Source: an uncultured Hyphomicrobiales bacterium (GTDB lineage: Bacteria; Pseudomonadota; Alphaproteobacteria; Rhizobiales; JAJFHR01). Taken from it: a stretch of 64,000 nucleotides of DNA. Positions 7,277-27,188 of this stretch are shown piece after piece (within the stretch, counting starts at the first letter, position 1; each line of letters begins with the position of its first letter). The stretch lies in NCBI GenBank assembly GCA_964625235.1, contig CAZVAZ010000001.1, positions 857 to 64,856 of the forward strand, in the 5' to 3' direction. The notes below the pieces were generated by a model. That model saw nothing but the letters and a program-made list of their open reading frames with translations, was not told where the DNA came from and ran no database searches. The translations under genes were made by a program, and so were the position numbers.

Positions 7277-7290
7277 TTGACCTTGATCAA
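7277..7290. promoter_or_regulatory. FNR/CRP-type box TTGACCTTGATCAA upstream of the Crp/Fnr gene
   Basis: Matches the TTGAT-N4-ATCAA consensus at 9 of 10 positions. Centred about 61 nt upstream of ATG 7345. Confidence 0.6.
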
Positions 7291-7344
7291 AGAAAAGGCA
7301 GCTTGAAATCGCGATAATACGGGTACGGAATTATTCTTCTAAAA

Positions 7345-8070
7345 ATGGAGTTTGCAATGCCGAATTTCACTGCCGCTCGTTATGGATGCGAGGCTGCAGG
7401 TTCTTTTACCTGTATGGCTTCTGCGGATGATAATGGCGATGCTCTTGCACGACTGCCTTTTCAGTTGACCAATATTGAAAATGCTTTGGAAAATGCCCGG
7501 CGTGCACCCTATCCAATTATCGTTATTTCCAGTGGTGCTGCTGGTTTGCAACATTTTCTCAAAGACGGCAGACGAACCATTTCCACAATATTTCTGGCAG
7601 GTGAAGTCCTGGATTTTAGTCAGATACGGGGAAGTGGCGGCTCATTATGTTGCCTCCTTCCGGGCCAGGCCCGGATGTTCAATGCAGTGGTTCTCGAAAA
7701 TCTGCGACAGGAAAATCCACAAGCCTGGTCGAGCCTGATGATTGGTAAATTCAGGTGTTGCAGTCAGACAACCAATCATTCTGTAGACCTTGCCCGCAAG
7801 TCGGCGGTTGAGAAGCTGGCTTCATTTATTTTTGAATGCCGCAACCGCCAGACTGCAGAGCGTGGCAAACTGATAAACCTGATTTTAAACCGAATTGATA
7901 TTGCTGATTATATGGGGTTGAGACCGGAAACACTTTCACGTGCTTTCACCAAACTGAAACGGTTAAAAATGATAGCCTGCGAGTGCGGTGATTATATTCA
8001 TATTCTCAATGAGCCGGCCTTGCGGCAAATTGCAAATGGCGCAGCCGATGAGTTTGGCTGTGCTGTTTGA
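7345..8070 (+). CDS. Crp/Fnr-family transcriptional regulator
   Basis: cNMP-binding-like middle region and C-terminal HTH RIDIADYMGLRPETLSRAFTKLKRLKMI carrying the E-x2-SR recognition motif that FNR-type proteins use on TTGA half-sites. Confidence 0.85.
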   Translation: MEFAMPNFTAARYGCEAAGSFTCMASADDNGDALARLPFQLTNIENALENARRAPYPIIVISSGAAGLQHFLKDGRRTISTIFLAGEVLDFSQIRGSGGSLCCLLPGQARMFNAVVLENLRQENPQAWSSLMIGKFRCCSQTTNHSVDLARKSAVEKLASFIFECRNRQTAERGKLINLILNRIDIADYMGLRPETLSRAFTKLKRLKMIACECGDYIHILNEPALRQIANGAADEFGCAV

Positions 8071-8074
8071 GCAC

Positions 8075-9472
8075 TTATGCCCTTGCGGAAAACCCTGACC
8101 GGGTATTTGCGGGCGCCACCTGACCTACGTCAGACAGGTAACGGTTGATTTTGTTCGCGGTTGCACGCGCCTGTTCTATGCAACTGGCCACCGACACACC
8201 ACCCAGATAATTCCCGGTAACATATAGTCCAGGCCGACGCTGGTGCAAAGCCTCTAGGGTTGAAACTTTATCGCTGTGTCCAATCTCATACTGCGGTAAA
8301 CTGCGGGCCCATTGACGACACCGGGAAAGAACGGGTTGACCACTGATTCCCAGCAGACCTGACAGCTCACGGTGTACCAGATGGCTGAGTTCATTGCTGT
8401 TCAGGCAAGCTGCATCATGGTTGCAACTGCCGCCCACATAGGCAGAAATTGAGACAAATCCATCCGGTGCCCGATTGGCAAACATGGTCGAAGGAAACTG
8501 TGCGCCGTTGATAATACCGCCTGTCCCCGCCACGCTCAAAAATCCCAGACTATCGAGAGGATGGCTAACCTGCTGGCGGGCATAGGCCAGAAACACAACG
8601 CTAAGGGGTGGAGCATCAATCTCAGCTGCGGCGGTTGCTGCTGGCTCATCCAACGGCTCAAGCAGGCTGGCGGCGACGTGAGGCTGAACGGCAAAGACAA
8701 TTGTTCTGGAAGTCAGATTACCTGATCTGTGGGTCTCGATCCTGTAGCCTTGCGGGTGATTTGAAACGGATTTGACTGCTGTTGCGGTTTTAATGCAACC
8801 GGGCATCGCGGTTGCCAGGGTTCTTGGCAAAGTTCCAACACCATCGCGAAACGAAAACAACCGTTTACCTGGCTCACTGCCTTGTCTGGCGTGAAGTATA
8901 CCTCGGGTGACAGAGCCAAACTCCTGTTCCATTTTCATCAATTTGGGAAAGGCTGATTTCAAGGACAGGTTGTGACTGTCTCCGGCAAATATTCCAGCCA
9001 CCAGCGGTGCCATGATTTTGTCGGCAAACTCGATACCAAAACGGCGGCATACAAAGGCGTGAATGCTTTCATCTTCGTCATTTGCTTTGCGCGGGCGCAA
9101 TATCTCTGTGATGAGACGGAACCGGCCACGAAGAGACAAATAGGGCGAAAGCAGGAAACCAGTGCGGTTAATTCCGATACCGTGCAGGGTGCCACCCTGG
9201 CGCAGGTAGCGTTTGCGTACATCATTGCCCAGGTCCAGCCGCTGGTTTTCAATATCGAGGTTTTGTGTCAACTCAAGCGCCTGAGGCACCAGGGTGTTGA
9301 GTGTGGTGGGACCATGTTCCATCAGGAAACCATTGATGCGCTGGGATATGGCGTTGCCGCCAACGGTTTGCTGGCGTTCCAGAACAATGACCCGGCGGCC
9401 GCATCGCTGCAGGTCATAAGCTGTGGTCAGGCCGGAAATTCCACCGCCGATTATGGCAACGTCGTAAGTCAT
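8075..9472 (-). CDS. hemY: HemY-type protoporphyrinogen/coproporphyrinogen oxidase-like FAD enzyme
   Basis: N-terminal dinucleotide fold YDVAIIGGGISGLTTAYDL...VLERQQTVGGN, a typical length of 465 aa, and the C-terminal LYVTGNYLGGVSVASCIEQA motif. ATGA overlap with the upstream radical-SAM gene. Confidence 0.75.
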   Translation of the reverse strand: MTYDVAIIGGGISGLTTAYDLQRCGRRVIVLERQQTVGGNAISQRINGFLMEHGPTTLNTLVPQALELTQNLDIENQRLDLGNDVRKRYLRQGGTLHGIGINRTGFLLSPYLSLRGRFRLITEILRPRKANDEDESIHAFVCRRFGIEFADKIMAPLVAGIFAGDSHNLSLKSAFPKLMKMEQEFGSVTRGILHARQGSEPGKRLFSFRDGVGTLPRTLATAMPGCIKTATAVKSVSNHPQGYRIETHRSGNLTSRTIVFAVQPHVAASLLEPLDEPAATAAAEIDAPPLSVVFLAYARQQVSHPLDSLGFLSVAGTGGIINGAQFPSTMFANRAPDGFVSISAYVGGSCNHDAACLNSNELSHLVHRELSGLLGISGQPVLSRCRQWARSLPQYEIGHSDKVSTLEALHQRRPGLYVTGNYLGGVSVASCIEQARATANKINRYLSDVGQVAPANTRSGFSARA

Positions 9473-10743
9473 GACAGCCCGGGCCTTTTGATGCCCGGTG
9501 GCAGGCCATTTTTGAACCGCTCTTTGGCCAGATGCGAAAGGTCATCTGCCGTCACAATTGACCCGCCCTTTGAGCGCACATCCGCCTCCACCCGGTTTTT
9601 AACCATGCGGCGAACGAAACCGGGTATCCGGGCAACGCGTTGTTCAGCATCTTGTGTCCAGTTGAGTGTTGCTTCTCCCGGCTTCAGGACTTCGATAATT
9701 GCCCCGTTTTGCGGCTGGTATGAACACAGGAAATCTTCTCCCATGAGATTGTTTGAGCGCGCCAGCGGCCGTGCGCGACAACCACCACACAGTTTTTGAT
9801 ATTCACAGATCCCACATCGTCCTTCCAGTTGAGGCTGGCGCAGGGCTGTGAAAATCTCACCATCATTCCAGATGTCGGAAAAACTGCTGTGACGCAAAGA
9901 CCCGCCGGAGGTTTCTATAAACGGGCAGGGGGTAACCTCGCCTTCCGGCGTCACGCGGGCATATCGAGTGCCGGCAATACAGCCGCCGGCTTCATAACCA
10001 TGGGCCATGGTGATCGGCCATTCCGGGTCGAGCTCCAGCGCCAGTCGCTTGAAATGCGGGGCGCACTTAGCGCGTACCATCAATTGTTTTTCATCGTGGG
10101 CAGCCTCGACCACGCGCTTGAGCACCTTGTCGTAATTTTCAATTGAAATATCGGTATATTTCTCACCGCGACCGGTGCACACCAGAAAAAATACATTGAG
10201 CACCAAAGCTTGCGCCTGCCGGGCAAAACTGATCATGTCGTCAATTTCACCGGCCGTATGATCAGTAACCGAGAAATGTATCTGGAAAGCCAGGTTCTCT
10301 TTGCGGCAGGCATCAATGGCCGCCATGGTTTTCAACCAGGCGCCTTTGCGACCGCGAAAATCATCATGTTTTTGCGGATCAAGTGAATCTATACTCAACC
10401 CTATGCCTGCAACGCCGGATTTTTTGAGGCTTTTCACCCGGTCAGATGTCAAAGTGATGCCGTTGGATCCGATAACGACCATCAGCCCGAGCCCGCTGGC
10501 GTGGGCCGCGAGTTCCTCGATGTCCGGGCGCAACAGTGGCTCACCGCCGGTCAAAACAATCATGCATTCCGGCCCAACGTCGGCAATATCACTGATGGCC
10601 TTTTTAACTTCGTCGGTGGACAATTCATCGGTGCTGCCGTTTTTTAGAATTTCGGCATCAAGATAACAATGGGCGCATGAGAGATTACATCGTTTTGTCA
10701 GATTGAAGGCGACAAGAAAAGGAGCGTCTACCGGTCTAGTCAT
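9469..10743 (-). CDS. Radical SAM/SPASM protein (NirJ/AhbC/AhbD-like) with a C-terminal PCP_red-like domain
   Basis: CNLSCAHCY (C-x3-C-x2-C). Cys-rich SPASM region GGCIAG...TPCPF...GRCGICEYQKLCGGCRARP. C-terminal NWTQDAEQRVARIPGFVRRMVKNRVEADVRSKGGSIVTADDL resembles the BchB/ChlB C-terminal domain. Confidence 0.8.
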   Translation of the reverse strand: MTRPVDAPFLVAFNLTKRCNLSCAHCYLDAEILKNGSTDELSTDEVKKAISDIADVGPECMIVLTGGEPLLRPDIEELAAHASGLGLMVVIGSNGITLTSDRVKSLKKSGVAGIGLSIDSLDPQKHDDFRGRKGAWLKTMAAIDACRKENLAFQIHFSVTDHTAGEIDDMISFARQAQALVLNVFFLVCTGRGEKYTDISIENYDKVLKRVVEAAHDEKQLMVRAKCAPHFKRLALELDPEWPITMAHGYEAGGCIAGTRYARVTPEGEVTPCPFIETSGGSLRHSSFSDIWNDGEIFTALRQPQLEGRCGICEYQKLCGGCRARPLARSNNLMGEDFLCSYQPQNGAIIEVLKPGEATLNWTQDAEQRVARIPGFVRRMVKNRVEADVRSKGGSIVTADDLSHLAKERFKNGLPPGIKRPGLS

Positions 10744-12397
10744 TATTTAACTCGGTTGCACCGGGCTCCGGGCACATGGCTTTTCGCGCTTTGGCAAATC
10801 CACCTTCGGCTACTTCACCGTCAACGCGGGTTGCACCATTTGCGCGTACATAGTCTTCAATGGTCTGTCTGGCTTTAGCCCGAAATATTTCCGGCACTCT
10901 TTGCAATCGCGCCAGACAGGCTGCTGCCCACTCCAGTTCCGTGTGGCAAGTCTCGGCAACAAAGGGTTCCACGTGCTGCGGCAATACCTCGGTGGCGGCA
11001 TCACGCCGGGCGGATTTTTCCGCTCTCAGGCGAATATTTTCCTTCACCGACTGATCGTTCAGTGTGGTCAGTATGGCAGTTGCCGCGGCATTCCAGGCGA
11101 GTGGTTCGAAACCATCGCTAACGGGTGTTTCACTGCCTTCAGTATTGCCGCCAGGCATCATTTTTTTCATCACGTCTTCAACAAAACGGCTAGTGATGAA
11201 TGTATGTCCCTCTGCGTGGGCCTGGCGAATAACCGAGGTGCGGGCGATACCGCGGACAAAATCGGGTGCGCGCGACATCATCGCATCGGCTTCTTCAGAC
11301 CACATGATGGTTTCTTCAGCGATAACATCAAGCGAGGGATAATGGGTCTTTTGACCAATCCAGATGTGACAGGGTGCCACCCTCAACAGGTTTTCCGTAT
11401 TGCCGCCGATGTCGAGTCCTTCATCAGCATGGACGCCAACTTTGCCCACCATCAACAAGCTCGCTTCAACTCTTTCGAGGTATTTTCGGATGGCCTGAAA
11501 CGGTTTTCCTGAAACCAGTTCACAGGTGATGTTGACGCCTTCTTCTTCAGCTACAGTTTTGGCGATGGCAAGATGCGATTGGTAGATTTTTGCAATACCA
11601 TCATCGATCAGTTCCTCGTGCAGCTGTTCCTGCTCTTTGAAACGAAATACCTTGCCCGCCTCATCAGAGAGAACACCGGCAATCTTGTTAAAGGCAACAT
11701 AGTGATAATAAGGATCGTAAGCGGCAACCGCGTGCACATCTGCGCCGGTTTGACGGGCAATCATCAAAGCCGATTTGAGAACCCCGAATGACTGGGGCGA
11801 GCCGTCAATTCCGACAACTATCGGCCCGTCACCAATGCTCATTTTGCGGTGCTTGATCACCAGCACATCAATTGGCGCGCGCCGTACAACGCGTTCACAA
11901 ACGCTGCCGATAATACTGCCTGCAACCGCTCCCAGCCCGCGAGAGCCTAAGGCGAGCACGTCAAATTCACCGGTTTTGGCAGCATCAATGATGCAGGTGT
12001 AGTTTTTGCCTTCGGGACTTAACCTTTTGAAGTTTACATCGGCATTTTTACATTTTTCCTGTGCGTTATCATGATAGCTGTCGGAGATGATACCAAGACC
12101 CTTGCCAATCAGGTCTTCATGCACATCACGCTGATGTTCCATTTCGGTTTCATAGCGATACCGTTCCGGCAATCCGCCTTCCATCTGCTTGAAACGCCGG
12201 TCGTGCATTTTAGCGGCGTAGGCATGAATGCCGATTATGGTTCCATTGATCGGCTTGACCAGTTTGATAGCTTCGAGAACTGCCTGATTGGCGAGATCTG
12301 ATTGATCAAGGGCGACAAGAATATTGTTCAGGCAAACCGGGGCTGAGCTGATCTGTTCATCAGCAATTTTTTCATTAAGCGCCAATGCTGTAGTCAT
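10736..12397 (-). CDS. Tandem universal-stress-protein (Usp) domains fused to three PCP_red-like repeats
   Basis: Two Usp modules (ILVALDQS...GSRGLGAVAGSIIGSVCERVVRRAPIDVLVIK; IVVGIDGS...LLMVGKVG). C-terminal repeats include MWSEEADAMMSRAPDFVRGIARTSV... and LEWAAACLARLQRVPEIFRAKARQTIEDYVRANG.... ATG 12397 has the SD GGAGCAAAAT; the track start 12433 would overlap the upstream mini-ORF. Confidence 0.7.
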   Translation of the reverse strand: MTTALALNEKIADEQISSAPVCLNNILVALDQSDLANQAVLEAIKLVKPINGTIIGIHAYAAKMHDRRFKQMEGGLPERYRYETEMEHQRDVHEDLIGKGLGIISDSYHDNAQEKCKNADVNFKRLSPEGKNYTCIIDAAKTGEFDVLALGSRGLGAVAGSIIGSVCERVVRRAPIDVLVIKHRKMSIGDGPIVVGIDGSPQSFGVLKSALMIARQTGADVHAVAAYDPYYHYVAFNKIAGVLSDEAGKVFRFKEQEQLHEELIDDGIAKIYQSHLAIAKTVAEEEGVNITCELVSGKPFQAIRKYLERVEASLLMVGKVGVHADEGLDIGGNTENLLRVAPCHIWIGQKTHYPSLDVIAEETIMWSEEADAMMSRAPDFVRGIARTSVIRQAHAEGHTFITSRFVEDVMKKMMPGGNTEGSETPVSDGFEPLAWNAAATAILTTLNDQSVKENIRLRAEKSARRDAATEVLPQHVEPFVAETCHTELEWAAACLARLQRVPEIFRAKARQTIEDYVRANGATRVDGEVAEGGFAKARKAMCPEPGATELNND

Positions 12398-12414
12398 ATT
12401 TTGCTCCTGCGATT

Positions 12415-12525
12415 TTATCCGTACAGCAGCCAATAGCCAACAATCAAAGCTATAACTGCAACATTTACAGCCGCACCAGCCAGTACAAAACCGTCAAAGG
12501 CATTAAGCTTTTTCTTGGGTGTCAT
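12415..12525 (-). CDS. 36-aa single-pass membrane mini-protein
   Basis: Manual translation: MTPKKKLNAFDGFVLAGAAVNVAVIALIVGYWLLYG. Basic N-terminus plus one TM helix. It fits exactly between the cupredoxin and Usp genes. Below the track size cutoff. Confidence 0.5.
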   Translation of the reverse strand: MTPKKKLNAFDGFVLAGAAVNVAVIALIVGYWLLYG

Positions 12526-12551
12526 GGCTTGGGTCCCAGATTGCAGAATGA

Positions 12552-13289
12552 TCAGAATGACAGGTCAATTTTGGTGTCTGCGCCAGCAGTGACCTTTACC
12601 TTGCCACTCTTGATCTCACCTAAAAACCCCTGCCACAGCCGAATTTTGTATTCGCCGGGCGGTACGTTATCGATGGTGAATTCACCGTTTTCACCAACAA
12701 CAGCATAATATGGGTTTGAGGCAACAAACATATAGGCGTGCATGAAGTCATGTGCGTCGCACTCAATTTTCATGCCAGCGCCTTTGCGCATTTTTATTTT
12801 TTTGGTTACTTTGTCCCCGGCGTTGGGCTGCGATACGTTTATTGCCGTGCGTCGCGCCCTGCCGATAAGTTCGTAGGTATGAATATTATGCAGGGTTTCG
12901 TCCGAATTCATGGCGGTCAGATTTCCACCATTCGCTATCACTGAGAAGGCAGGAGTAAATTCGCATTTTTTCTGATTGAGAGTTACATTCATCAACTCTT
13001 TCGGAAATGCCTTGCCCTGCTTGACCTTGTAGAGAAAGACAACTGCATTTTTTACTGTGCCGTTTTCTATTATAACAAAGGGAACGGTTCGATTACCTTC
13101 ACCGCAGATTTGCGTATCCTTGGAAATGGTGAATATTTTTGATTTTTCAACAGCGCTGCCTGCCAGGACTTTTCCCGAAATACTGCCACCGTCGGTGACC
13201 TCTATTTCCGTGTACTTTTTGGCTTGAGCCAGTCCGGTAAAACCGACCAGTGCAACTGTGCAAAGCATCCCTTTAAACAGTTTATTCAT
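12552..13289 (-). CDS. Secreted cupredoxin (amicyanin-like type-1 copper site) flanked by carboxypeptidase-regulatory-like Ig segments
   Basis: Signal peptide MNKLFKGMLCTVALVGFTGLAQA. Candidate Cu ligands are HNIH and C-D-A-H-D-F-M (C-x2-H-x2-M, as in amicyanin). C-terminal GEFTIDNVPPGEYKIRLWQ. Confidence 0.65.
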   Translation of the reverse strand: MNKLFKGMLCTVALVGFTGLAQAKKYTEIEVTDGGSISGKVLAGSAVEKSKIFTISKDTQICGEGNRTVPFVIIENGTVKNAVVFLYKVKQGKAFPKELMNVTLNQKKCEFTPAFSVIANGGNLTAMNSDETLHNIHTYELIGRARRTAINVSQPNAGDKVTKKIKMRKGAGMKIECDAHDFMHAYMFVASNPYYAVVGENGEFTIDNVPPGEYKIRLWQGFLGEIKSGKVKVTAGADTKIDLSF

Positions 13290-13324
13290 CGAGGTTTCCT
13301 CTTGTTGGGTGTTGAAATAATACT

Positions 13325-15490
13325 TCAGGCAACGGCTTGAATATCTCCATTGTCCGAATGGCTGAAAAGATCACTAAGAGCTTCGATAGCTACCAGCCAT
13401 ATCCGCTTTTTATCCTCATCCTTGAGAATTTTTAGATATTTATCCGCCGCTTCATTTGCGTTCCAGCCCTTGAGCATGGCGACAATATCGCGGCGGTGCA
13501 TACCATCATGCGCCAGGGTTAATTCAATAAGAATATCCATTTGTGAGCGCCGGCAGGCAAGGGCTTGAGCAGCGGCAATTCGAACCCCGGAATAATTATC
13601 TTCCAGTGCCAGCAACAAGCTCTCCACATGACCTTTCTTGCGACCAAGTGCTGTGACGGCTTCCCGGCGAACATGCACATCTTCATCACCGCACAACTCA
13701 ATAAGGGTTTCTTCAACATCTTTGCCTTTGATGTATGCAAGACAGCGTGCGCTGAGCATTCGAATAAGGCGATCCTGGTGTTGTGTTTCTGTTCGGATTG
13801 CCGGGTACAGGCGTTTTTTCAACTTGCCTCGTGCAGTTCCGATGAGAGCCAGGCTTTCCAGGCAGGCCTGTTTGAGCTCAACGTCATCATCTTCAAGGGC
13901 CTGATTCAGCACCCGGGTTATCCCAGGAAAATCAAAGTCACCCAGCAGACAGGCGGCAAACCGGCGGACATCTTCATGGGGGGCCACCTTGACGTCCAGC
14001 GATACCTTGCTTTTTCTCATTGCCCGCGATTTTGAGATTTTGATGAACTTTTTATCGTCTTCAGAAAGTTCAACTTCCTCAGCTTCCGGCTTTTCTTCCT
14101 CGCCCGGTTCGGTGCGAATTCCATCGCGCAATATCTGGTCCAGTGTCGAAGTGGCCGGGGGTTGTTCTTGGGGTGCAGCAGCCTCAACGTCTTCTGGCGC
14201 TGCTTCTTCTGTGGCGTCACTTTCCTCGACCGCCTCAACAAGTTCTCCGCGAAGGGCTGCCAGGAGACTGTCACCGGCTCTGTTTGGCCATTTGCCTGAG
14301 GCGGCAATTTTTGCCAGGGCAGACATAGTTGAGATACGGATCTGTCTGTTGCTGTTTGCCACAGTATCCAACAGGTAGGGCAAGCCAGCATCGTTGAGCA
14401 GGCTAAGCGCTTCAATTAAGCCAAGTCGAAAAACCAGTGGTTGTTCAGAGTTTTGCAGTGCCCCGCCGAGACTCTTTGCTGATGCCTCTCCGATCAGGGT
14501 TGCCCAGGCAACAGCTGCGGCACCGGCAACATCCGGTATGCCGACAATCGCCGTGCGAACAACTTCTGAAAAGCCTTCTTTTTTGAACGCTTGAGGTTCA
14601 GCGGCAATTGATCTGAAGATTGTCTGCCTGACTTCCGCAGATTTGTCCGACAATCTCTCCATCGCCAGATCAGGTTCTTTTGCGCTTATTGTTTTGGCAA
14701 TCAGGATGCGCACATCAACGTGTTCGTCACTGAAAAACGCGGCAAGACGCGCATCTTCGGGATCAGTATCAATTATTTTCTCGAGGGCAACATAGCGTAC
14801 TTCACCTGCTTTATCGGCCAAACATTTTTGCAAAAGATCATCAATTTCGGCAGATTGCCCCGGCTCCAAAACCGAACAGACCCGGCGGCGCATGCGTGCA
14901 TCACCCTGGTTATATAATGAGGTCAGTGCGGCCACACCTTCGGTGCCCAGTTGGACCAGAACCGGGACTGTAACCTGCGTCAGGTCCTGACCTTCGTCGT
15001 TTTTCAATTCGTTCATAATTACCGCTACGGATTCAGCTGTTCCAATTTTACCGAGCGCCTTGATTGCTGCCAATTGTATGTCCAGCCAGTCATCCCAGCC
15101 CGTAGCGTAATATTCGTCTCCCCAGTTTATCTCTTCATCCCGGCCGGCGACCATTGTGTGCAACCAGGGGACAACCTGTCGATGGTTTGCTTTGGCAAGC
15201 AATTCAATGGCAGACAGTTTGACTTCAGGGCAGGGATCACCGAGAAGATTTTCCATAATGGCACCGGCGGCTTGTGTCTCTTCGAGTTCCAAGAGGGCGG
15301 CTGCGGCATCAGTGCGTACATCTTCATCCTCATCCAGGAGTGCCTGTTGCAGCACTGGTCCGGCTCCGGGATGAGCAATTTTTCCCAACGCTGTTGCAGC
15401 GGCACAACGATGAATATCCACCCCCGACAAAAGGAGTTTGCTCAGTTGGGTAAATGCTCTTTCTTTTGCAGATTTTGCTCTTGTTACCAT
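13325..15490 (-). CDS. HEAT-repeat (PBS-lyase-type) protein, 721 aa, cytoplasmic
   Basis: Many repeats of the D/E-x-VR-x-A-A-x-ALG type (DEDVRTDAAAALLEL, DVHVRREAVTALG, YSGVRIAAAQALA). Acidic linker near the middle. No signal peptide. Confidence 0.75.
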   Translation of the reverse strand: MVTRAKSAKERAFTQLSKLLLSGVDIHRCAAATALGKIAHPGAGPVLQQALLDEDEDVRTDAAAALLELEETQAAGAIMENLLGDPCPEVKLSAIELLAKANHRQVVPWLHTMVAGRDEEINWGDEYYATGWDDWLDIQLAAIKALGKIGTAESVAVIMNELKNDEGQDLTQVTVPVLVQLGTEGVAALTSLYNQGDARMRRRVCSVLEPGQSAEIDDLLQKCLADKAGEVRYVALEKIIDTDPEDARLAAFFSDEHVDVRILIAKTISAKEPDLAMERLSDKSAEVRQTIFRSIAAEPQAFKKEGFSEVVRTAIVGIPDVAGAAAVAWATLIGEASAKSLGGALQNSEQPLVFRLGLIEALSLLNDAGLPYLLDTVANSNRQIRISTMSALAKIAASGKWPNRAGDSLLAALRGELVEAVEESDATEEAAPEDVEAAAPQEQPPATSTLDQILRDGIRTEPGEEEKPEAEEVELSEDDKKFIKISKSRAMRKSKVSLDVKVAPHEDVRRFAACLLGDFDFPGITRVLNQALEDDDVELKQACLESLALIGTARGKLKKRLYPAIRTETQHQDRLIRMLSARCLAYIKGKDVEETLIELCGDEDVHVRREAVTALGRKKGHVESLLLALEDNYSGVRIAAAQALACRRSQMDILIELTLAHDGMHRRDIVAMLKGWNANEAADKYLKILKDEDKKRIWLVAIEALSDLFSHSDNGDIQAVA

Positions 15491-15553
15491 GATTTATATC
15501 CCAGAATTTCCTAAATTGAGAGTTCAATTGAACACATTCGGCTCAAGCCTCCC

Positions 15554-15567
15554 TTGACATATGTCAA
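15554..15567. promoter_or_regulatory. FNR-type box TTGACATATGTCAA upstream of the HEAT-repeat operon
   Basis: Perfect palindrome with a TTGA-N6-TCAA core, centred about 70 nt upstream of start codon 15490. Confidence 0.6.
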
Positions 15568-15654: not shown

Positions 15655-15691
15655 TTTTTTGTTTTTCGACTTCAATCAATCGCGTTTGTGA

Positions 15692-18367
15692 TTACACCCC
15701 GATATCGCGCGGTGCAAAAGACATGGACCGGAACGTGTTCTTGTAAGGGGATATGCCGATTTTCTTGATCCTGGCAACGCCCATCTTGAAGTTGTAATTA
15801 CCACTCATCCAGTCAACAACGCGGCCTTCCAGTGCATTTGCAGGCTGTGATGTGTGAAGGAAATCCATATAAAGAACTCCTTTCTTTACCGCCCGGGTGA
15901 CCATGGCTACAGCGGTAACGGCTGCTTCACTGAACTCCACGTTGCCATTTTTCAACTGGCCGGAGAATTTATAATCGTCGCCTTCCACGCCAAGGACTGT
16001 TTCCTTCAGTGAGGGCACACGATCAGAGTAGATCATAACCATATCACCGCTTTCAATGCCACGGGCTTTGGCATCTTCGGTGTTGATTTCAACCCAGTTT
16101 TCAGGCCAGCGCTGCACGATATAGGGGCGACGGCGATCATCAAAACCTGACTGCCAGCGTTCATTTGAACGACCCGATGTGCACCACAATTCGTCATCCT
16201 TGGGTTTCATCCATTCCCAGTAATCCGAAAACCAGGACCATTGCGCCTTTTCAAGATTGCAACGCCCGGTCTGGGAGTTGAAGTGTGTGGTCTTCTTGTT
16301 GACCATGTTGGCTCCGGCAGGGCCGGTTGGCGACAATTTGCGTTGCGTATCGTGCAGTCGTTTTGTGCCAACCAGAGTGCCATCATCCAACATTGACACC
16401 GGGCCCTGAATACCATTGGTGCCAAATTCCCTGAGTTTTTGATGCAGGGTTTTGCCTTCACGTTTGGCTGCCACGTTGATCATGTTGTAATCTTTACGGC
16501 TGCCGCGTGAAAACCGTGCGGTTTCTTCCGCAACTTCGTTGGAGTTTTTCCAGTCAAAGCCTTTAAAGCCCATGCGGGTGGCCAGTTGAGCAATGATCCA
16601 CCAATCCGGTTTTGATTCACCCGGCGGATCATAGAACTTCTGGTACAGCCGCATGCGGCGCTCACCATTGGCGCGCATAAAGTCCTCTTCACCCCAGGTT
16701 GCAGCCGGGAAGATAATGTCCGCAAACTGGTTGCCAATCGGATCGACCAGATAGATGTCCTGGTTAATGATCACCATGCCGCCTGAATCCGCCCGTTTTT
16801 TCAGGGTTTCGATAATCCTCTCTTTATTGAGGGAGCGCACCTGATGAGGATTACCGTTGGTGAGTTCTTGAAACTTGGCGGCCAGCAGGAATGATCCACA
16901 CATGGACTGGATCCAGGTGGTTCCGATGACATGAGCCATGCGGGTGTGACCGGCCATGGTCCAGGTATCGGTGTCAAGTGCCCGACGGCGACGTCCGGGC
17001 AGTTTCATCGGCGATTTGTTGCGTGGATACTTGCCACCTCTGACGCCGCCACGCTGATGCCCGCCGCCGCGACCGATCATCTGGCCAGGTCTGCCGCCGG
17101 CACCGACGATGATGCCCAGAGCAGAGATGGCGACGGTATTACCGGTATTATTTGACCAGTAAAAACCCTTTTCGATCATGATGGATGTTTTCGGGCGCTT
17201 GCCTTTGACAGGTTTTGCCATCATTTCAGCGGCAAGCTGAATTTTCTTTGCATCAATACCCGAAATTTTCGACGCATTTTCCAGCGTGTAATCATCTTGT
17301 GACAACAGCCATTCTTTCCAGTCATCAAAGCCATCGGTCTGGAACTGGCCCCAGGTGGTGCGCCATTGCCACGGCGTGTTACGCGTGCCCTGGCCAAATC
17401 CTGAAGATGATCCCCACTTGTCGTTGACCCAGTTTTTTATCCATTCCTTGTCCTGCCAGCCGTTTTCTACGATGATACGGGCAATTGCATTGACCACAAG
17501 AAGGTCGGTGCCCGGAGTTACATCAAGCCACAGGCCACCATTTTGCTCTATATAGGCGACACCAGCAGTGCGGCGTGGGACCATCATGATGGTTTTCTGT
17601 CCGTTTTGAATGCCTTTCATAATCCACTGGGTGAACAGGATTGTTTTGGTTTCATAAGGATCGGTTCCGCAGATAAACAGTGTTTCTGCATCGCGCCAGT
17701 CTTCATAAGAAGGTGCAAAGTTGTCAAAACCTGCGTTGCGGAAGCCCGGCGTTGAAGATACGTCCGAAGGAGTGTCATGAAAGGTGAAGTTCGCCGTGTT
17801 AATGGATCCGAGCGCGAATTTAGTGATCGCGTAGGTGTTTTCTATAAATTGATAGGAATATGTTTTGACGCCGTAGGCCAAAGGTCCGTGTTTTTCGATC
17901 ACATGTTTGGCAACAGCGGCGGCCACATCAAGAGCCAGATCCCAGGTCACCGGTTGAAGAATGCCGTGAATACGCATTAACGGTGTGGTCAGGCGATCAC
18001 GGGTGGGCGTTTGGGGATTGTAACATTTTTGTGCGATACAGCCACCGCGAAGCGATGAATCACCGTCCGTATTAACCGCTTCAGTGTCCTTGTCAGGCAG
18101 GATTACCACATGGTGGGGTTCATCTTCGTGAAGCACGATATTATGCTGGTTGGGGGCAACCCAGGGCCCGAGCACTTCCACGGGGAAATCGACACCAAAG
18201 GCATTCTCTGAAGCTTTGGCCCCCCCCCGCCTGCCGCCTTTTACCGGCCAGCGATAAACCTTGTAACCGCAGGCGACGACGCAATAATCGCACGCTGTTG
18301 AAATGACATCCGCATCCTTGGGGGGCAGGGGTACATCTGTTTCTGGAATATAATAAGGTGTTGACAT
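15692..18367 (-). CDS. idrA: AioA/IdrA-family molybdopterin oxidoreductase large subunit (putative iodate reductase catalytic subunit)
   Basis: N-terminal 3Fe-4S-type motif CDYCVVACGYKVYRW (C-x2-C-x3-C) followed by ENAFGVDFP. Collinear with arsenite-oxidase-type large subunits through to the C-terminus. GRGGGHQRGG segment. The Idr call rests on the Rieske partner and two peroxidases directly upstream. Confidence 0.7.
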   Translation of the reverse strand: MSTPYYIPETDVPLPPKDADVISTACDYCVVACGYKVYRWPVKGGRRGGAKASENAFGVDFPVEVLGPWVAPNQHNIVLHEDEPHHVVILPDKDTEAVNTDGDSSLRGGCIAQKCYNPQTPTRDRLTTPLMRIHGILQPVTWDLALDVAAAVAKHVIEKHGPLAYGVKTYSYQFIENTYAITKFALGSINTANFTFHDTPSDVSSTPGFRNAGFDNFAPSYEDWRDAETLFICGTDPYETKTILFTQWIMKGIQNGQKTIMMVPRRTAGVAYIEQNGGLWLDVTPGTDLLVVNAIARIIVENGWQDKEWIKNWVNDKWGSSSGFGQGTRNTPWQWRTTWGQFQTDGFDDWKEWLLSQDDYTLENASKISGIDAKKIQLAAEMMAKPVKGKRPKTSIMIEKGFYWSNNTGNTVAISALGIIVGAGGRPGQMIGRGGGHQRGGVRGGKYPRNKSPMKLPGRRRRALDTDTWTMAGHTRMAHVIGTTWIQSMCGSFLLAAKFQELTNGNPHQVRSLNKERIIETLKKRADSGGMVIINQDIYLVDPIGNQFADIIFPAATWGEEDFMRANGERRMRLYQKFYDPPGESKPDWWIIAQLATRMGFKGFDWKNSNEVAEETARFSRGSRKDYNMINVAAKREGKTLHQKLREFGTNGIQGPVSMLDDGTLVGTKRLHDTQRKLSPTGPAGANMVNKKTTHFNSQTGRCNLEKAQWSWFSDYWEWMKPKDDELWCTSGRSNERWQSGFDDRRRPYIVQRWPENWVEINTEDAKARGIESGDMVMIYSDRVPSLKETVLGVEGDDYKFSGQLKNGNVEFSEAAVTAVAMVTRAVKKGVLYMDFLHTSQPANALEGRVVDWMSGNYNFKMGVARIKKIGISPYKNTFRSMSFAPRDIGV

Positions 18368-18384
18368 AACTCTCTTCTCCCGAA

Positions 18385-18969
18385 TTAGCTGTGCAGATTG
18401 TTTTCGCGACCAAAAATAAGTCCGAAAATGCCGGTGGCATAAACACTGTCACCTTCGATTTCGAGCAAAATTTGCGGCAGACTCTGGTAAGCCTGACCCG
18501 AGATCAAAATGCCGTGGCGGGTGAGGTCATAAGTTGAAAGATGAAGCGGACAGGCTCCAAGTGATTTGGTTTCAGCCTTGTAACTTCCCTCCAGTGTGCT
18601 GCCCTGGTGGGTGCAGGCATAATTGTATGCGACAATATCCTGGTCCTTACCTAAACCGCCGCCGGCTTTAACGCCGAGCTTTACCACCATGTTCTCAGAA
18701 TAGGCGCCCTCATCAGGGTAGTTGAAGTCAAACGGTTCATCCTGCTTCAGTTCAGATAATTTACAGATATACTTACGCGGGTAATTGGTGATCTGGGCGG
18801 GCACACTTTTCGCCTCGGCAGTCCCAGCGTTCAAGGTTATCATCACGGTGGCGGTTGTCGCCCCCGTACCAATTAGAAAGTTGCGGCGTGAAACCAGACA
18901 CTTGTGACCGATTTGTTTTGCCAATTTCTTTCTTGACGAGATGTTTTCATAGACAGTTGTTTTGGCCAT
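18385..18969 (-). CDS. idrB: AioB/IdrB-family Rieske [2Fe-2S] small subunit with Tat signal
   Basis: Twin-arginine signal SRRNFLIGTGATTATV. Rieske ligand motifs CTHQG and CPLH. AioB-like C-terminus GLIFGRENNL. Confidence 0.75.
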   Translation of the reverse strand: MAKTTVYENISSRKKLAKQIGHKCLVSRRNFLIGTGATTATVMITLNAGTAEAKSVPAQITNYPRKYICKLSELKQDEPFDFNYPDEGAYSENMVVKLGVKAGGGLGKDQDIVAYNYACTHQGSTLEGSYKAETKSLGACPLHLSTYDLTRHGILISGQAYQSLPQILLEIEGDSVYATGIFGLIFGRENNLHS

Positions 18970-18981
18970 TTTGGGTCCCCT

Positions 18982-20136
18982 TTAATTTTTTGCCGGATTG
19001 GGCAATGGCGCATATGGTGGAAGTTTTGGTGGTTCGATTACCAGTTCCTCCCCGCTGAAGGCATCAAGGAAAGCCACCAGATCTTCGACTTCTTTTTCAG
19101 ACAGTCCCAGCGGCTTGACTAAAGGCGATTTGCTTTTCGCCATGGTGCCATCGGTAAAATCATTTTCGCCGCCACCCTGGTTGTAAAATTCAACAACCTC
19201 GGTCAGATCCCAGAACGCACCATTGTGCATATAAGGAGCGGTGTACTTGAGATAACGCAGAGGGGCGGTCCTGAACTTGCCCATGTCGACCTTTTGCTTG
19301 GTGCGGTAATAGAGACCTGCATCGTCTTTTATTTTACGATACATTTCCTGCGTCACGCCTTTGGCATATTGCTCATAGCGGAAGGTGATTTGGGCCAGGC
19401 CGTCTTCTTCCCACCGTTCGGAAGGAGGTACACCCAGGTTATAATATTTCTGGTCGGTGGCAAGAGCGCCATTATGGCAGGCAATACAACCAGCCTTGCC
19501 ATTAAACAGCTCCATGCCGCGTACCTGCTGAGTGCTGAGGGCTTTTTTGTCACCACGCAAATATTTATCCAATGGTGTATTGTTGTGGATCATCGTGCGT
19601 TCGAACGATGCAATGGCCTTCCAGGCATCTGAAATCAACGGCCATTCAGTGCCAAATGCTTCTTTGAAAAGTTTGCGGTATTCCGGGATGAAAGCCAGTC
19701 GTGCTTCCATCACATCATTTTCACCATTGCCGGCAACGGCCCCTTTGGCGGCACTTGGAGCCTGCTTTTCCAAAGACGAGGCTGCACCGACCCAGAACAG
19801 TTTCAACAGGTAAGCAGAGTTTACCACCGTTTGACTGTTGCGCCAGTGAACTGTGCCGGGATAACCGCGTGACAATGCATCACCAAACCCCCAACCCTGA
19901 TCGGGCTCGTGACAGGTAACACAGCCGGTGGATGCATCACCACCAAGCCGGGGGTCCCAGAATAACATCTTGCCAAGCTTGATTTTAACTTCCGACTGCT
20001 TGTTATCCAGTGGGATGGGAGGATCTCCCAGAGGTGCTAAAGGTGGCACGTCTGATCCCGCATATGCCATGCCAGCAGTGATGGCAGTGATGAGCGCTCC
20101 AGCAAGGAGACCCGATATTTTCTTTGTATATTTCAT
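18982..20136 (-). CDS. Dihaem cytochrome c peroxidase (CCP/MauG family), IdrP-like
   Basis: Signal peptide. Two haem c motifs (CVTCHEPDQGW and CIACHNGA). FRTAPLRYLKYTAPYMHNG family motif. Confidence 0.85.
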   Translation of the reverse strand: MKYTKKISGLLAGALITAITAGMAYAGSDVPPLAPLGDPPIPLDNKQSEVKIKLGKMLFWDPRLGGDASTGCVTCHEPDQGWGFGDALSRGYPGTVHWRNSQTVVNSAYLLKLFWVGAASSLEKQAPSAAKGAVAGNGENDVMEARLAFIPEYRKLFKEAFGTEWPLISDAWKAIASFERTMIHNNTPLDKYLRGDKKALSTQQVRGMELFNGKAGCIACHNGALATDQKYYNLGVPPSERWEEDGLAQITFRYEQYAKGVTQEMYRKIKDDAGLYYRTKQKVDMGKFRTAPLRYLKYTAPYMHNGAFWDLTEVVEFYNQGGGENDFTDGTMAKSKSPLVKPLGLSEKEVEDLVAFLDAFSGEELVIEPPKLPPYAPLPNPAKN

Positions 20137-20154
20137 CGAATTATCTCCCTTGAT

Positions 20155-21276
20155 CTAGTTTTTTACAGCGCGCCAGTTTTTAATGGCGGTATAATTGGTG
20201 GGGATTTTTTTCTTCCAGACAAATTCCTTGGTGTTCAGTGGATCGCCTGTCAGAGCCTCCAGGAAGTCAACAAGATCCTGTTGCTCAACGAATGTCAGTT
20301 TGAGCGGCTTTAAATCCGGGTTTTTGTTTTTGTCTTCACCGCCACCTTGATTGTAAAAAGCAACCACTTCAAATAGCGATTTAAACATGCCGTTGTGCAT
20401 ATAAGGTGCTGTGAATTTCAATTCGCGCAAAGTCGGTGTAACGAACTTTCCAACATTGGAGCCATCGACTTTGGGGTTGATAATACCTGCACCGACGTCA
20501 CGGCGGATATTCATGATATTTTCAATGCCCATAAATGTGCCAAAGGCTACATAAGTCATATGACGCATTGGATCAGACCAGATTTCCGGATTTTCCGGAA
20601 CACCCAGATTATATGCTTTGTCGTTGGTGAAATTTGCCCCGCTATGGCAGGCGGCACATTGAGCTTTGCCTTTAAACAAGTCATATCCGCGTTTGGCCGA
20701 TGCTGTCATGGACCCTTTGTCAAAGGGGGAGTTGCGCGAAGTCAGTGTTTTCAAATACTCAGGTATGGCTTTTCGGACCGCACCGTTGGAAGGCTCGCCA
20801 TAGCCAGCATCTTTAAACATCTTTACATATACAGGGTCCTGCTTGAGGCGCTCCTGCATCAGGCGCATGTCCATGTTCATGATGTAATCTTCAGTGATCA
20901 TCTCGCGTGTGACATCATTCAGATTGGTGCCAATGCGACCGTCAAGGAACCAGTTTTTACGGACTGCGGTATTTATCAAGGTAGGTGTGTTGCGAAACCC
21001 TTTTGAACCCGGATAGGCTTTGGACAAAGCCAGACCGTCGCTGAAGCCTTTGTCAGGCTGGTGGCAGGTGGCACAACTGATTGCGGCATCGCCGGACAGC
21101 CTTGGGTCAAAAAATAAACGTTTGCCCAGTTCGGCTTTTTTGGCATCGACCTTGATCTGTTTTATTGGCCCCTGACCGTCCTGGCCAGCAATTACGGTAC
21201 CCGATAAAACAAAAAAACCAATCAGCCCCACGGACAGCGCCAGCATACATTGTGTTTTGCTACCGAACGTCTTCAT
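20155..21276 (-). CDS. Dihaem cytochrome c peroxidase (CCP/MauG family), IdrP-like paralog
   Basis: CATCHQPDKGF and CAACHSG haem motifs, plus FVTPTLRELKFTAPYMHNG. ATG 21276 has the SD AAGGGAG and begins a signal peptide (MKTFGSKTQCMLALSVGLIGFF). The track start 21378 lies inside the FNR box. Confidence 0.85.
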   Translation of the reverse strand: MKTFGSKTQCMLALSVGLIGFFVLSGTVIAGQDGQGPIKQIKVDAKKAELGKRLFFDPRLSGDAAISCATCHQPDKGFSDGLALSKAYPGSKGFRNTPTLINTAVRKNWFLDGRIGTNLNDVTREMITEDYIMNMDMRLMQERLKQDPVYVKMFKDAGYGEPSNGAVRKAIPEYLKTLTSRNSPFDKGSMTASAKRGYDLFKGKAQCAACHSGANFTNDKAYNLGVPENPEIWSDPMRHMTYVAFGTFMGIENIMNIRRDVGAGIINPKVDGSNVGKFVTPTLRELKFTAPYMHNGMFKSLFEVVAFYNQGGGEDKNKNPDLKPLKLTFVEQQDLVDFLEALTGDPLNTKEFVWKKKIPTNYTAIKNWRAVKN

Positions 21277-21364
21277 GGCGTTACTCCCTTTTATTCCTGG
21301 TGAGTCGACGAGACCTCGTCCACAAATGCTGCGGTACTGTCGCTGGCAATGCGATATGTGGTCA

Positions 21365-21378
21365 TTGACGAATGTCAA
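21365..21378. promoter_or_regulatory. FNR-type box TTGACGAATGTCAA upstream of the peroxidase/Rieske/molybdoenzyme operon
   Basis: TTGAC-N4-GTCAA, centred about 95 nt upstream of ATG 21276. Confidence 0.55.
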
Positions 21379-21460
21379 GAGTGCGAGTGTAAACGTGCGT
21401 TTAAGTGAAAAAAATCAGGGGATTTTGTCTTTTTTCCAAAATTCCGAACAGCCTTATAGG

Positions 21461-23728: not shown

Positions 23729-23730
23729 GG

Positions 23731-24564: not shown

Positions 24565-26318
24565 GCCGGTTTTTCCTGCCTGGTTTCACCCAGCCTGGAA
24601 AGCCAGAAGACGAAAACCATAATTGCCATGAAACTCAACGTGATGATCGTGATTGTATTGCCGGCTTCTCCAATTGTGGGAATATAGGCTTCAGGGGATT
24701 TGTCTTTCATGATGGTGTAAACATGCCAGTTGGTGCGAAGGCTTGAGCGGATATACCCCATCAAACCCATCAGCCAGGTGAAGGCCACCGGCAGGACGAA
24801 CAAAGCATATTGCGAACGCTCGGGCATGCGGCCCCAATGTACCTTGGTGGTTTTGGCACCCCGTAACATAAAGACGTCAATGACGACGGCAAAAATGATG
24901 ATCGACAGTGTGGTTATCACCTGAGGAACCGAAGCGCCTACTTTATAGACTGTCGGCGTGAGATAGCCGTAGATGCCCGCTGCAATAATATTGGCACAAC
25001 CAATCACGTAAAGTGCGATGATCACCATGTTTCCCTGCCTGGCCCAGGAGACGGTGGGTATGCGGCTGGAGCGATAGAACATCTGAAACGACAGAAAGGT
25101 AAAAACCAGCATCAGATTCACAGCTGTATTCTTGGCAGGCATAATACCAAGTGGCCCCAGAAACTTGTGGCCAACCCCGCCCAGCTGGCGGATTTCCTCA
25201 GTGGTCAAAATGAGTGAGTTCGGTGTCACCCAGACTAAAAACCCGATGACAATGACAGCGGCTATATATTTGACATATTTGGCGTATTCAGCGCCACGGT
25301 CGGTGCGCATCAGACCGCACCACAGATAGTAGTTGGCGGCGAGCACGATGGTGCCGATAAGCACCGCCTGAATGATAAACAACCAGGCCAGGATGCCGCC
25401 CATGGCGGTAATGCCCATCTGCTGCGAATAGGCATAGACTTCGGCCATGAGCCAGTATCCGGCAAAAGGCAGGGGCAGAAAACCGGCGACGGCGATGAAA
25501 TTTGAGGTGTAACCCATCCAGTCATAATGGGCTTTGAGTTCCTTGTTCTTCTCAGCCAGGAACATATAGGCGGCATATCCTCCGACAATGGCTCCGCCAT
25601 AAGCGATATTGGCTAAAAATCGATGCAGATTAACCGGGTTCCACAAGGGATTGCGGGTGGCTTCCCATACGCTGCCAACCACGGCACCTGTGGCGGGATC
25701 AACCCCGGCGGGCGACATCATGAACGTTGCCCAGGCGTTGGCCACAAACATCAATGTCAGCCCGACGGTATTGAGCACAAGACCGATAGACATATGACAC
25801 CACTTGGCGTTGCCGTAACGCAAGGCTTTCCAGGAATAATAATAAAGGTAAAGCGTCACCGATTCCAAAAGAAACAGCAGGGCGTAAAGAAGCATCTGAC
25901 CTTTAAAAACCTTCATCAGATACCCCATCAGATGGGGATAAAGTACAAACAATCCCAGCGCCAGAGAGCCGCCAAACAGGGCCGTCAGTGAATAGGCCGA
26001 CATGGTGATTCTCATGAATTCGTATGCCATGTTATCATAGCGTTCATCACCGGTCACATGGCCCAGAAACTCCATTGAAATTGCAAATAACGGCACAGCG
26101 AGCACGAAGGCTGCCAGGAATAAATGCATTTGCGCCAGACCCCAGACCAAGGTGCGCGAGTTAATGCCGGCTATTTTGGGGTAATCTGCCCGGCCGGGTC
26201 TGGGAGCGCCTGCTGCAACGTCGCCCGCATCGGTTGCCGCAAGCACAAGTTCTGGAAACAGAACCAGCAAGGCCACAGCAAGGAGGATGAAGAGACTTGA
26301 AAAATTTCTAAAGTTCAT
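24561..26318 (-). CDS. Cytochrome bd subunit-I-like (CydA-like) polytopic membrane protein; no CydB partner and no recognisable Q-loop
   Basis: Collinear CydA landmarks: LAQMHLFLAAFVLAVPL (His19 region), FLLESVTLYLYYYSW (FFLES region), MFVANAWATFM (VANGWMQ region), NLHRFLANIAYGG (His186 region). 585 aa, strongly hydrophobic throughout. Confidence 0.75.
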   Translation of the reverse strand: MNFRNFSSLFILLAVALLVLFPELVLAATDAGDVAAGAPRPGRADYPKIAGINSRTLVWGLAQMHLFLAAFVLAVPLFAISMEFLGHVTGDERYDNMAYEFMRITMSAYSLTALFGGSLALGLFVLYPHLMGYLMKVFKGQMLLYALLFLLESVTLYLYYYSWKALRYGNAKWCHMSIGLVLNTVGLTLMFVANAWATFMMSPAGVDPATGAVVGSVWEATRNPLWNPVNLHRFLANIAYGGAIVGGYAAYMFLAEKNKELKAHYDWMGYTSNFIAVAGFLPLPFAGYWLMAEVYAYSQQMGITAMGGILAWLFIIQAVLIGTIVLAANYYLWCGLMRTDRGAEYAKYVKYIAAVIVIGFLVWVTPNSLILTTEEIRQLGGVGHKFLGPLGIMPAKNTAVNLMLVFTFLSFQMFYRSSRIPTVSWARQGNMVIIALYVIGCANIIAAGIYGYLTPTVYKVGASVPQVITTLSIIIFAVVIDVFMLRGAKTTKVHWGRMPERSQYALFVLPVAFTWLMGLMGYIRSSLRTNWHVYTIMKDKSPEAYIPTIGEAGNTITIITLSFMAIMVFVFWLSRLGETRQEKPA

Positions 26319-26324
26319 AAGAGG

Positions 26325-26453
26325 CTACCGTGGCATCAGGTTGAATTTTACCGGCAGGCCCTGGGCCTCCATGATCATCCAGTCCATGGTGTGAAAATAA
26401 GCTGTCCACACAATCAGGGCGGCAATTAACACCACCCATTTATTTGAAAACAT
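26325..26453 (-). CDS. 42-aa single-pass membrane mini-protein (possible small subunit of the bd-like complex)
   Basis: MFSNKWVVLIAALIVWTAYFHTMDWMIMEAQGLPVKFNLMPR. SD GAGGGA upstream of ATG 26453. Ends 7 nt before the CydA-like start. Confidence 0.5.
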   Translation of the reverse strand: MFSNKWVVLIAALIVWTAYFHTMDWMIMEAQGLPVKFNLMPR

Positions 26454-26481
26454 GCTTTCCCTCTTTCTGTTTCCGCCACGC

Positions 26482-26604
26482 TCAATGGGTGGATACAACC
26501 CCATGGTCATAGATCAACAGCCACCAGAAAAAGACCAGCATGGCAATGGTAGTGAGTGCAAATATCGTTTTGCCAATTACTTCGCTGTTTTCATTTGACG
26601 CCAT
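26482..26604 (-). CDS. 40-aa single-pass membrane mini-protein, first gene of the unit
   Basis: Manual translation: MASNENSEVIGKTIFALTTIAMLVFFWWLLIYDHGVVSTH. Below the track cutoff. Positioned between the FNR box and the next mini-ORF. Confidence 0.45.
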   Translation of the reverse strand: MASNENSEVIGKTIFALTTIAMLVFFWWLLIYDHGVVSTH

Positions 26605-26672
26605 AGCAGTGCCGTTTCCCAAAACTGTTTTTCCTAGTGAGGGGAAGTATGCTTGTTGATGATGTTTTGTAA

Positions 26673-26686
26673 TTGACCAAGATCAA
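26673..26686. promoter_or_regulatory. FNR-type box TTGACCAAGATCAA upstream of the bd-like/cytochrome c operon
   Basis: TTGAC-N4-ATCAA, centred about 75 nt upstream of ATG 26604. Confidence 0.6.
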
Positions 26687-27150: not shown

Positions 27151-27188
27151 GTGACAGTACCCTGACGAAACAACAACCAAAAGCTCAA

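Follow-up and report, generated by a model that had tools for sequence, protein, structure and literature searches.

FNR-type boxes upstream of four transcription units in a putative iodate-reductase island of an uncultured Hyphomicrobiales bacterium

We analysed a 64-kb stretch of DNA (64,000 nucleotides, referred to as the window) from an uncultured Hyphomicrobiales bacterium, in which a CRP/FNR-family regulator gene adjoins an island of about 20 kb built around an idr-type, putatively iodate-reducing operon. Four 14-bp inverted repeats of the form TTGA(T/C)-N4-(A/G)TCAA, the box class read by FNR and FixK proteins, lie upstream of four units of this island: the regulator gene itself, the idr operon and two accessory operons. 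These boxes recur at the same promoters in related marine Alphaproteobacteria, and their spacing to −10-like elements is that of class II activator sites. The explanation we prefer, with a probability of roughly 0.7 judged from sequence, is that the boxes are class II operators of a CRP/FNR-family activator that would switch the whole island on together when oxygen is limiting.

Strict boxes in the window and in related loci

The strict box, TTGAY-N4-RTCAA, was scanned as TTGAYNNNNRTCAA over the whole window, coding sequence included. The four box sequences that a preliminary description of this DNA had reported at 7277, 15554, 21365 and 26673 were confirmed as exact matches to the 14-bp inverted repeat. 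In total, five distinct sites were found, while mononucleotide shuffles expect 0.17 and dinucleotide shuffles (both strands counted) expect 0.45, and none of 100 dinucleotide shuffles reached the observed count. Non-coding sequence makes up 5.8% of the window and holds four of the five strict boxes (binomial probability ~5e-5). These four are clustered, all lying no more than 20 kb from one another.

7277..7290, + strand: box 1, TTGACCTTGATCAA, promoter of the regulator gene
15554..15567, − strand: box 2, TTGACATATGTCAA, promoter of the HEAT operon
21365..21378, − strand: box 3, TTGACGAATGTCAA (gene-strand reading TTGACATTCGTCAA), promoter of the idr operon
26673..26686, − strand: box 4, TTGACCAAGATCAA (gene-strand reading TTGATCTTGGTCAA), promoter of the small-peptide/CydA-like operon
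33516..33529, strand not assigned: fifth exact match, TTGACACATGTCAA, within an amidase coding sequence

The amidase gene that holds the copy of TTGACACATGTCAA at 33516 comes after a dipeptide ABC-transporter operon, and this copy is most likely a chance match outside the regulon. The centres of the other boxes lie 61.5 nt (to ATG 7345) or 73.5 nt (to ATG 7357), 70.5 nt, 95.5 nt and 75.5 nt from the start codons behind boxes 1 to 4, in agreement with the 60-95 nt given earlier. The first open reading frame (ORF) after box 4 is a 40-codon ORF (26604-26482), not the 585-aa gene. The description had also placed the boxes in the only sizeable gaps of the island, which is incorrect, since box-free intergenic gaps of 118 bp (12434-12551) and 128 bp (27061-27188) are present as well.

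Allowing one mismatch, we found 11 further sites in the window against 5.5 ± 2.2 expected, three of them intergenic (6913, 15666 and 57362). The site at 6913-6926, TTTACTGTCATCAA, shares a gap with box 1 and precedes it by 364 nt; that at 15666-15679, TCGACTTCAATCAA, follows the idrA stop codon but comes before the terminator. No box was found before the Usp/PCP_red gene, either in the window or in 18 related loci, and this gene is probably co-transcribed with the HEAT operon. Inspection of the 518-bp gap before the regulator gene for small ORFs gave nothing convincing. Rfam and tRNA scans of the window returned no matches, so no riboswitch or integration-site tRNA was found.

We then compared the window with loci that carry relatives of the molybdenum (Mo) subunit encoded behind box 3. 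A search with one genome per species returned 366 relatives, and the best 80 (75-96% identity), all from marine Alphaproteobacteria, were used. These 80 loci (1.44 Mb; individual loci are cited by L numbers) contain 74 strict boxes, compared with 2.55 ± 1.4 in shuffles, a ~30-fold enrichment. Fifty-two of the 74 lie within 300 nt upstream of idrP2, HEAT, sm1, p118 or regulator homologues, regions that account for 2.9% of the sequence, and a single one falls in mapped coding sequence. At three of the orthologous promoters the strict boxes were placed as follows.

Before idrP2: centre 93-134 nt from the start, 15 loci
Before the HEAT gene: centre 37-76 nt from the start, about 20 loci
Before sm1: centre 70-87 nt from the start, 8 loci

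In orthologous promoters the half-sites are invariant, and the N4 spacer and the flanks vary between genera, which is the signature of a selected protein-binding site. The accessory genes are also widely retained near the Mo-enzyme gene, with HEAT in 66/80 loci, p245 in 54/80, and the CydA-like and cytochrome genes in 42-47/80, indicating that the island reaches well beyond the four idr genes.

Promoter geometry

To define the position of the box relative to other promoter elements, 46 box-bearing promoters were aligned on the box and oriented to the gene, with positions numbered from box base 1. Outside the box, information content peaked at TGAC at positions 15-18, directly after the box, and at G at position 35. 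Further peaks appeared at T/A at 37/38, at T at 41/42 (position 42 in 31/46 promoters) and at A at 49 (25/46). If positions 37-42 are read as the −10 hexamer, +1 falls at position 49 and the centre of the box at −41.5, where class II activators bind. Taken as predictions, the −10-like positions and the A at 49 in the 46 aligned promoters fit the expected spacing near −41.5 exactly. The corresponding predictions for the window are given below.

7313-7318, + strand: predicted −10 of the box 1 promoter, GATAAT; predicted start ~7325; good fit
15534-15526, − strand: predicted extended −10 of the box 2 promoter, TGtTCAATT; predicted start ~15519
21341-21336, − strand: predicted −10 of the box 3 promoter, GACAGT; predicted start ~21329
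26651-26645, − strand: predicted −10 of the box 4 promoter, CATACT/ATACTT; predicted start ~26638

In a generic sigma-70 scan, which was otherwise uninformative, the four window promoters all lacked a canonical, self-sufficient −35/−10 pair, as promoters that depend on an activator should. The left half-site was also considered as a −35 hexamer in its own right and was rejected on spacing, because the conserved −10-like element lies 19-22 nt past the box end and not 9 nt.

A hairpin (GACGAG..CUCGUC) was noted in the idrP2 leader (window 21305-21322, − strand), and equivalent leaders were found in L003, L007, L008 and L053. These hairpins lie 10-35 nt downstream of the predicted start in several genera and differ in sequence. 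The folding z-scores of the leader hairpins downstream of box 3 ranged from 0.18 to −1.49, indistinguishable from shuffles.

The adjacent regulator and the candidate readers of the boxes

The gene behind box 1 encodes the following protein.

7357..8070, + strand: CRP/FNR-family regulator, 237 aa from ATG 7357 (GGAG Shine-Dalgarno sequence, public gene call) or 241 aa from ATG 7345

Its C-terminal part is a Crp-type winged helix-turn-helix (HTH; PF13545, HTH_Crp_2, 1.9e-13; PF00325, 2e-5). This HTH is all that Pfam sees in the protein, and the cNMP_binding model gave no match. In the AlphaFold2 model (predicted local distance difference test score 79.9, predicted template modelling score 0.74), a beta-roll (strands 54-108) and a dimerisation helix (121-146) are predicted in addition to the winged HTH. 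Foldseek neighbours of the model were FNR, FixK2, GlxR and CRP, the best being Aliivibrio fischeri FNR (E 6e-14) and Bradyrhizobium FixK2; by sequence, the best solved relative was FixK2 (4i2o, E 7e-11), followed by Aliivibrio fischeri FNR. The E-x2-SR helix previously ascribed to the regulator is present as RPETLSRAF, of the class that reads TTGA, and aligns to ETVSRAL in FixK2 and ETISRLL in FNR. The protein was matched at 100% identity among public proteins; for the window Mo subunit, the best of the matches listed was 96%, with none at 100%.

The sensor side of the protein is different. Only two N-terminal cysteines are present (C11 and C19 of the 237-aa form); both are missing in the orthologues P0014 to P0049, and the segment that carries them is predicted to be disordered. 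The conserved ligand set of an iron-sulphur (Fe-S) cluster, three N-terminal cysteines and one central cysteine, was not found in the regulator, indicating that it is FixK/NnrR-like and not a direct oxygen sensor. Against the NCBIfam FixK equivalog it scored 64.4 bits, below the 300-bit cut-off. The label FNR-type therefore suits the box class, the fold and the recognition helix, but not the sensor.

E. coli and Aliivibrio fischeri FNR share the fold, the recognition helix and the box, while their [4Fe-4S] ligands (C-x2-C-x5-C plus a central Cys) are absent from the window regulator. The FixK/FixK2 regulons of rhizobia and the FnrL regulon of Rhodobacter use the same 14-bp TTGA(C/T)-N4-(G/A)TCAA palindrome and E-x2-SR helix, with box centres near −41.5, respiratory operons as targets and a box before the regulator's own gene. 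In those regulons the sites are known as class II 'anaeroboxes', TTGA-N6-TCAA, of genes for microaerobic respiration. However, the window regulator is only ~24-30% identical to FixK, no fixLJ is present in the window, and the target is an iodate-reductase island instead of fixNOQP/hemN. Dnr and NnrR are cysteine-less CRP/FNR proteins encoded next to nir/nor genes and often under ANR or FnrL control. The window regulator resembles them in its cysteine-less sensor domain, its position at the edge of a respiratory island, its own-gene FNR-type box, and the location of close relatives beside nirS clusters (L083 and L086). In contrast to the Dnr/NnrR setting, the window island has no genes related to nitric oxide.

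We examined where relatives of the regulator are encoded. A family member lies at the island edge in the window, L002, L003, L082 and L085, and a CRP/FNR-family gene lies beside idrP2 or p118 in Marinosulfonomonas and Roseibium loci. The idr-adjacent protein of the Marinosulfonomonas type has an FnrN-like C-x2-C-x9-C motif plus a central Cys, and that of the Roseibium type has a different cysteine-rich segment. In the window, L003, L081, L084 and L087 the regulator's own start is preceded by a strict box at a distance of 62-76 nt, the four relatives spanning 64.5-75.5 nt. In L086 and L083 the distance is 117-137 nt, and the own-gene box is missing only where the relative follows a PAS histidine kinase gene. 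As the own-gene box is found wherever these relatives lie, it is a trait of the regulator family and not of the island. The earlier statement that the regulon includes the regulator's own promoter is thus correct as to box 1, which recurs in four other genomes, although this could mean autoregulation or, equally, the entry point of an FnrL cascade. In L083 (6683, 6714 and 2559) and L086 (17720), nirS and nirE-like genes have strict boxes in front of them and a regulator paralogue beside them, so that in these island-carrying genomes the motif also serves denitrification genes.

From the sites, their conservation, their geometry relative to −10-like elements, and the fold and recognition helix of the regulator, we infer binding, activation as opposed to repression, the identity of the binder and the signal. 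We propose that a dimeric CRP/FNR-family activator would bind the four boxes, each centred ~41.5 bp upstream of the start, and that the bound dimer would contact RNA polymerase directly from this class II position. Four units would be driven in this way: the regulator gene, the small-peptide/CydA-like/cytochrome operon, idrP2-idrP1-idrB-idrA, and the operon for the HEAT, secreted and maturation-enzyme proteins. When oxygen becomes limiting the activator would bind, and the whole 20-kb island would come on together. Box 1 may serve positive autoregulation, or it may let in an oxygen signal that comes from an Fe-S FnrL whose gene lies elsewhere; the two roles could also combine. Since the regulator is without an Fe-S sensor, it is probably switched on through box 1 by an FnrL-type protein, or amplifies its own synthesis. 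The same arrangement is found in the ANR-to-Dnr and FixLJ-to-FixK cascades. Low oxygen as the signal fits published expression data: 'aerobic' marine Alphaproteobacteria express idr only when oxygen is limiting, idrA transcripts peak inside oxygen minimum zones, and related idr genes are induced by low oxygen.

Several observations weigh against this proposal. The motif is a generic FNR/FnrL/FixK/NnrR/Dnr box that any paralogue could bind, and relatives of the regulator are encoded beside nirS clusters (L086, and L083, which is from the same assembly as L002) or in unrelated neighbourhoods (L081, L084 and L087). The predicted −10 of box 3 is a weak match. About half of the related islands, mostly of the Rhodospirillales type, are box-free, and the presence of the regulator is not significantly associated with strict boxes (5/11 versus 22/67 loci, p = 0.5). 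With boxes of up to one mismatch the association is 11/11 versus 31/67 (p = 6e-4), a value that is uncorrected for phylogeny and confounded by contig ends. In the Rhodospirillales-type arrangement the CydA-like genes come after p245. Box-free islands adjoin other regulators, namely a PAS+BTAD protein in a Kiloniellaceae metagenome-assembled genome (L036 5404-6594) and, on the Azonexus hydrophilus NCP973 plasmid (L088 279-3933), a sensor kinase and a sigma-54 activator beside idr; no strict FNR box was found before idrP2 in either of these two loci.

The strongest competitor, which we regard as unlikely, is that the boxes are functional but are read by a global oxygen-sensing regulator of the FnrL/FixK type whose gene lies elsewhere in the genome, and that the adjacent regulator is a mere target or controls other genes, so that no dedicated local regulon exists. 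The generic consensus of the box is compatible with this, as are the lack of a conserved cysteine cluster in the adjacent regulator, the own-gene box retained by close family members at nirS clusters or elsewhere, and the 22 box-bearing loci that have no regulator homologue in the retrieved sequence. On the other hand, many regulator-less loci end at a contig edge right beside the island, idrP2 or HEAT is preceded by a box of no more than one mismatch in all 11 regulator-bearing loci, and a CRP/FNR gene recurs at the island edge (window, L002, L003, L082, L085) or beside idrP2 or p118 (Marinosulfonomonas, Roseibium). The island's own FixK/NnrR-like regulator is the most likely occupant of the sites, by a little better than even odds. 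The local regulon suggested in the preliminary description stands as a set of real FNR/FixK-class cis-elements at conserved positions before four clustered units, but a global FnrL, FixK or NnrR paralogue with an identical recognition helix may occupy them instead of the adjacent regulator. A more speculative idea, somewhat less probable than a global binder, is that the cysteine-less regulator senses iodate, hypoiodous acid (HOI) or H2O2 through its divergent beta-roll. If so, the CRP/FNR family would gain a new effector specificity, and the accessory operons would be unrecognised parts of marine iodate respiration. Sensing of iodate or its reactive products would explain induction by sub-micromolar iodate, which has no known sensor; in Roseovarius azorensis, iodate-dependent induction occurs at 0.1 µM iodate. 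No locus named as Roseovarius azorensis was present among the best 120 of 1340 Mo-subunit relatives.

Two further readings are far less probable. In one, the boxes are repressor operators, and the island stays silent as long as a CRP/FNR-family dimer, bound across the −35 region, is not released by a signal. The box does overlap the −35 region, a place from which some FNR/FixK-family members act as repressors, and FixK2-type factors exert negative autoregulation. However, the promoters have no good −35/−10 pairs of their own, the −10-like element of 46 promoters is spaced from the box as is classical for activation at −41.5, and low oxygen induces related idr genes rather than derepressing them, which together make this reading very improbable. 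In the other, the matches arise by chance or are plain sigma-70 −35 hexamers (TTGACA) that involve no regulator. TTGACA is indeed found on the gene strand in boxes 2 and 3, but both half-sites are invariant in orthologous promoters, the enrichment over shuffles is ~30-fold, and the −10-like element lies at 19-22 nt past the box end, where 9 nt would apply if the left half-site were the −35. This reading is effectively refuted.

The units behind the boxes and their significance

Gene layout was derived from Pfam and NCBIfam scans and from inspection of the gaps.

8075..15490, − strand: operon behind box 2; HEAT-repeat protein of 721 aa (15490-13325), secreted protein of 245 aa (p245), Usp+PCP_red protein of 565 aa, NirJ2/AhbD-like radical SAM/SPASM protein of 424 aa, HemY-like amine oxidase of 465 aa
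15624..15653, − strand: intrinsic terminator after the Mo-subunit gene; −19.2 kcal/mol, z = −5.25, followed by a U-tract
15692..21276, − strand: idrP2-idrP1-idrB-idrA-type operon behind box 3
21276-20155 and 20136-18982, − strand: two di-haem cytochrome c peroxidases, PF03150 each
18969-18385, − strand: Rieske subunit (idrB-type), TIGR02694
18367-15692, − strand: AioA/IdrA-like molybdopterin subunit with Rieske_3, 891 aa; PF18465, PF00384, PF01568
21461..26604, − strand: operon behind box 4; membrane peptides of 40-42 codons (26604-26482 and 26453-26325), CydA-like protein of 585 aa, cytochrome c of 277 aa, multihaem cytochrome c of 755 aa with an EB_dh haem-b domain

Gene order in the unit behind box 3 is the same as on the plasmid of Azonexus hydrophilus NCP973, a confirmed iodate respirer whose large subunit is 49% identical. 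The window Mo subunit is 75% identical to its homologue in Labrenzia alba (L075), which is on the list of idr carriers of Reyes-Umana et al. (PMC8692401). The same authors distinguished idr from arsenite-oxidase (aio) loci by two di-haem cytochrome c peroxidase genes (PMC8692401). All parts of the idrABP1P2 set were found in the window: an AioA-like subunit with a [3Fe-4S] Rieske_3 domain, a Rieske small subunit and two PF03150 genes directly upstream. Iodate reduction has been observed for related alphaproteobacterial clusters, in culture or after expression in E. coli (PMC11445184, PMC13455634). By analogy with these clusters, the window operon would be an idr-type iodate reductase with iodate-reducing activity.

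The window core thus resembles the described idrABP1P2 island (Yamazaki 2020; Reyes-Umana 2021) in its AioA-like Mo subunit with Rieske_3, its Rieske subunit and its two di-haem peroxidases. It differs in that it is flanked by two conserved accessory operons, and all three operons carry the box, whereas published accounts describe the flanks of idrABP1P2 as poorly conserved. In the idr literature searched, no regulator or promoter element was named for idr genes, and the CydA-like/multihaem cytochrome operon behind box 4 is not described in the idr literature examined. Judged from its gene content, this operon may be a dedicated electron-transfer module from quinol to Idr. The strong terminator between idrA and box 2 indicates that the idr and HEAT operons are separate transcription units. 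The HEAT operon, whose 3' end converges with the regulator gene, resembles a module for haem or cofactor maturation, a putative role.

Some features of the neighbouring genes were also recorded. The NirJ2/AhbD-like radical SAM/SPASM protein carries a PCP_red tail, and relatives of the HEAT operon in L082 and L085 include an extra FGE-sulfatase-like gene and moeA. The p118 gene (26704-27060, − strand) encodes a 118-aa membrane-anchored protein that has no family match; in 12 loci the gene is conserved at the edge of the island. L043, L062 and L066 have the box upstream of p118 and not between p118 and sm1, so that p118 is there within the box-controlled unit. Further along the window, a 595-aa animal-haem-peroxidase-like protein (57678-59465, + strand) adjoins a BTAD/TPR (tetratricopeptide repeat) regulator (60048-62102, − strand), and the one-mismatch box TTGGCTGGTATCAA at 57362 lies in the 462-bp gap upstream of the peroxidase-like gene. 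The proximity of a haem peroxidase to an iodate-reductase island could have a bearing on iodide oxidation.

That an FNR/FixK box should precede an operon for alternative respiration is textbook knowledge; the new part is the iodate-reductase target. Marine bacteria that reduce iodate influence how much iodide is present in oxygen minimum zones and at the sea surface. The conserved box before idrP2 offers a testable mechanism for oxygen-limited idr expression and for the peak of idrA transcripts in oxygen minimum zones. Moreover, the shared box links two conserved accessory operons, so far undescribed, to the iodate reductase and thereby nominates them as parts of the pathway.

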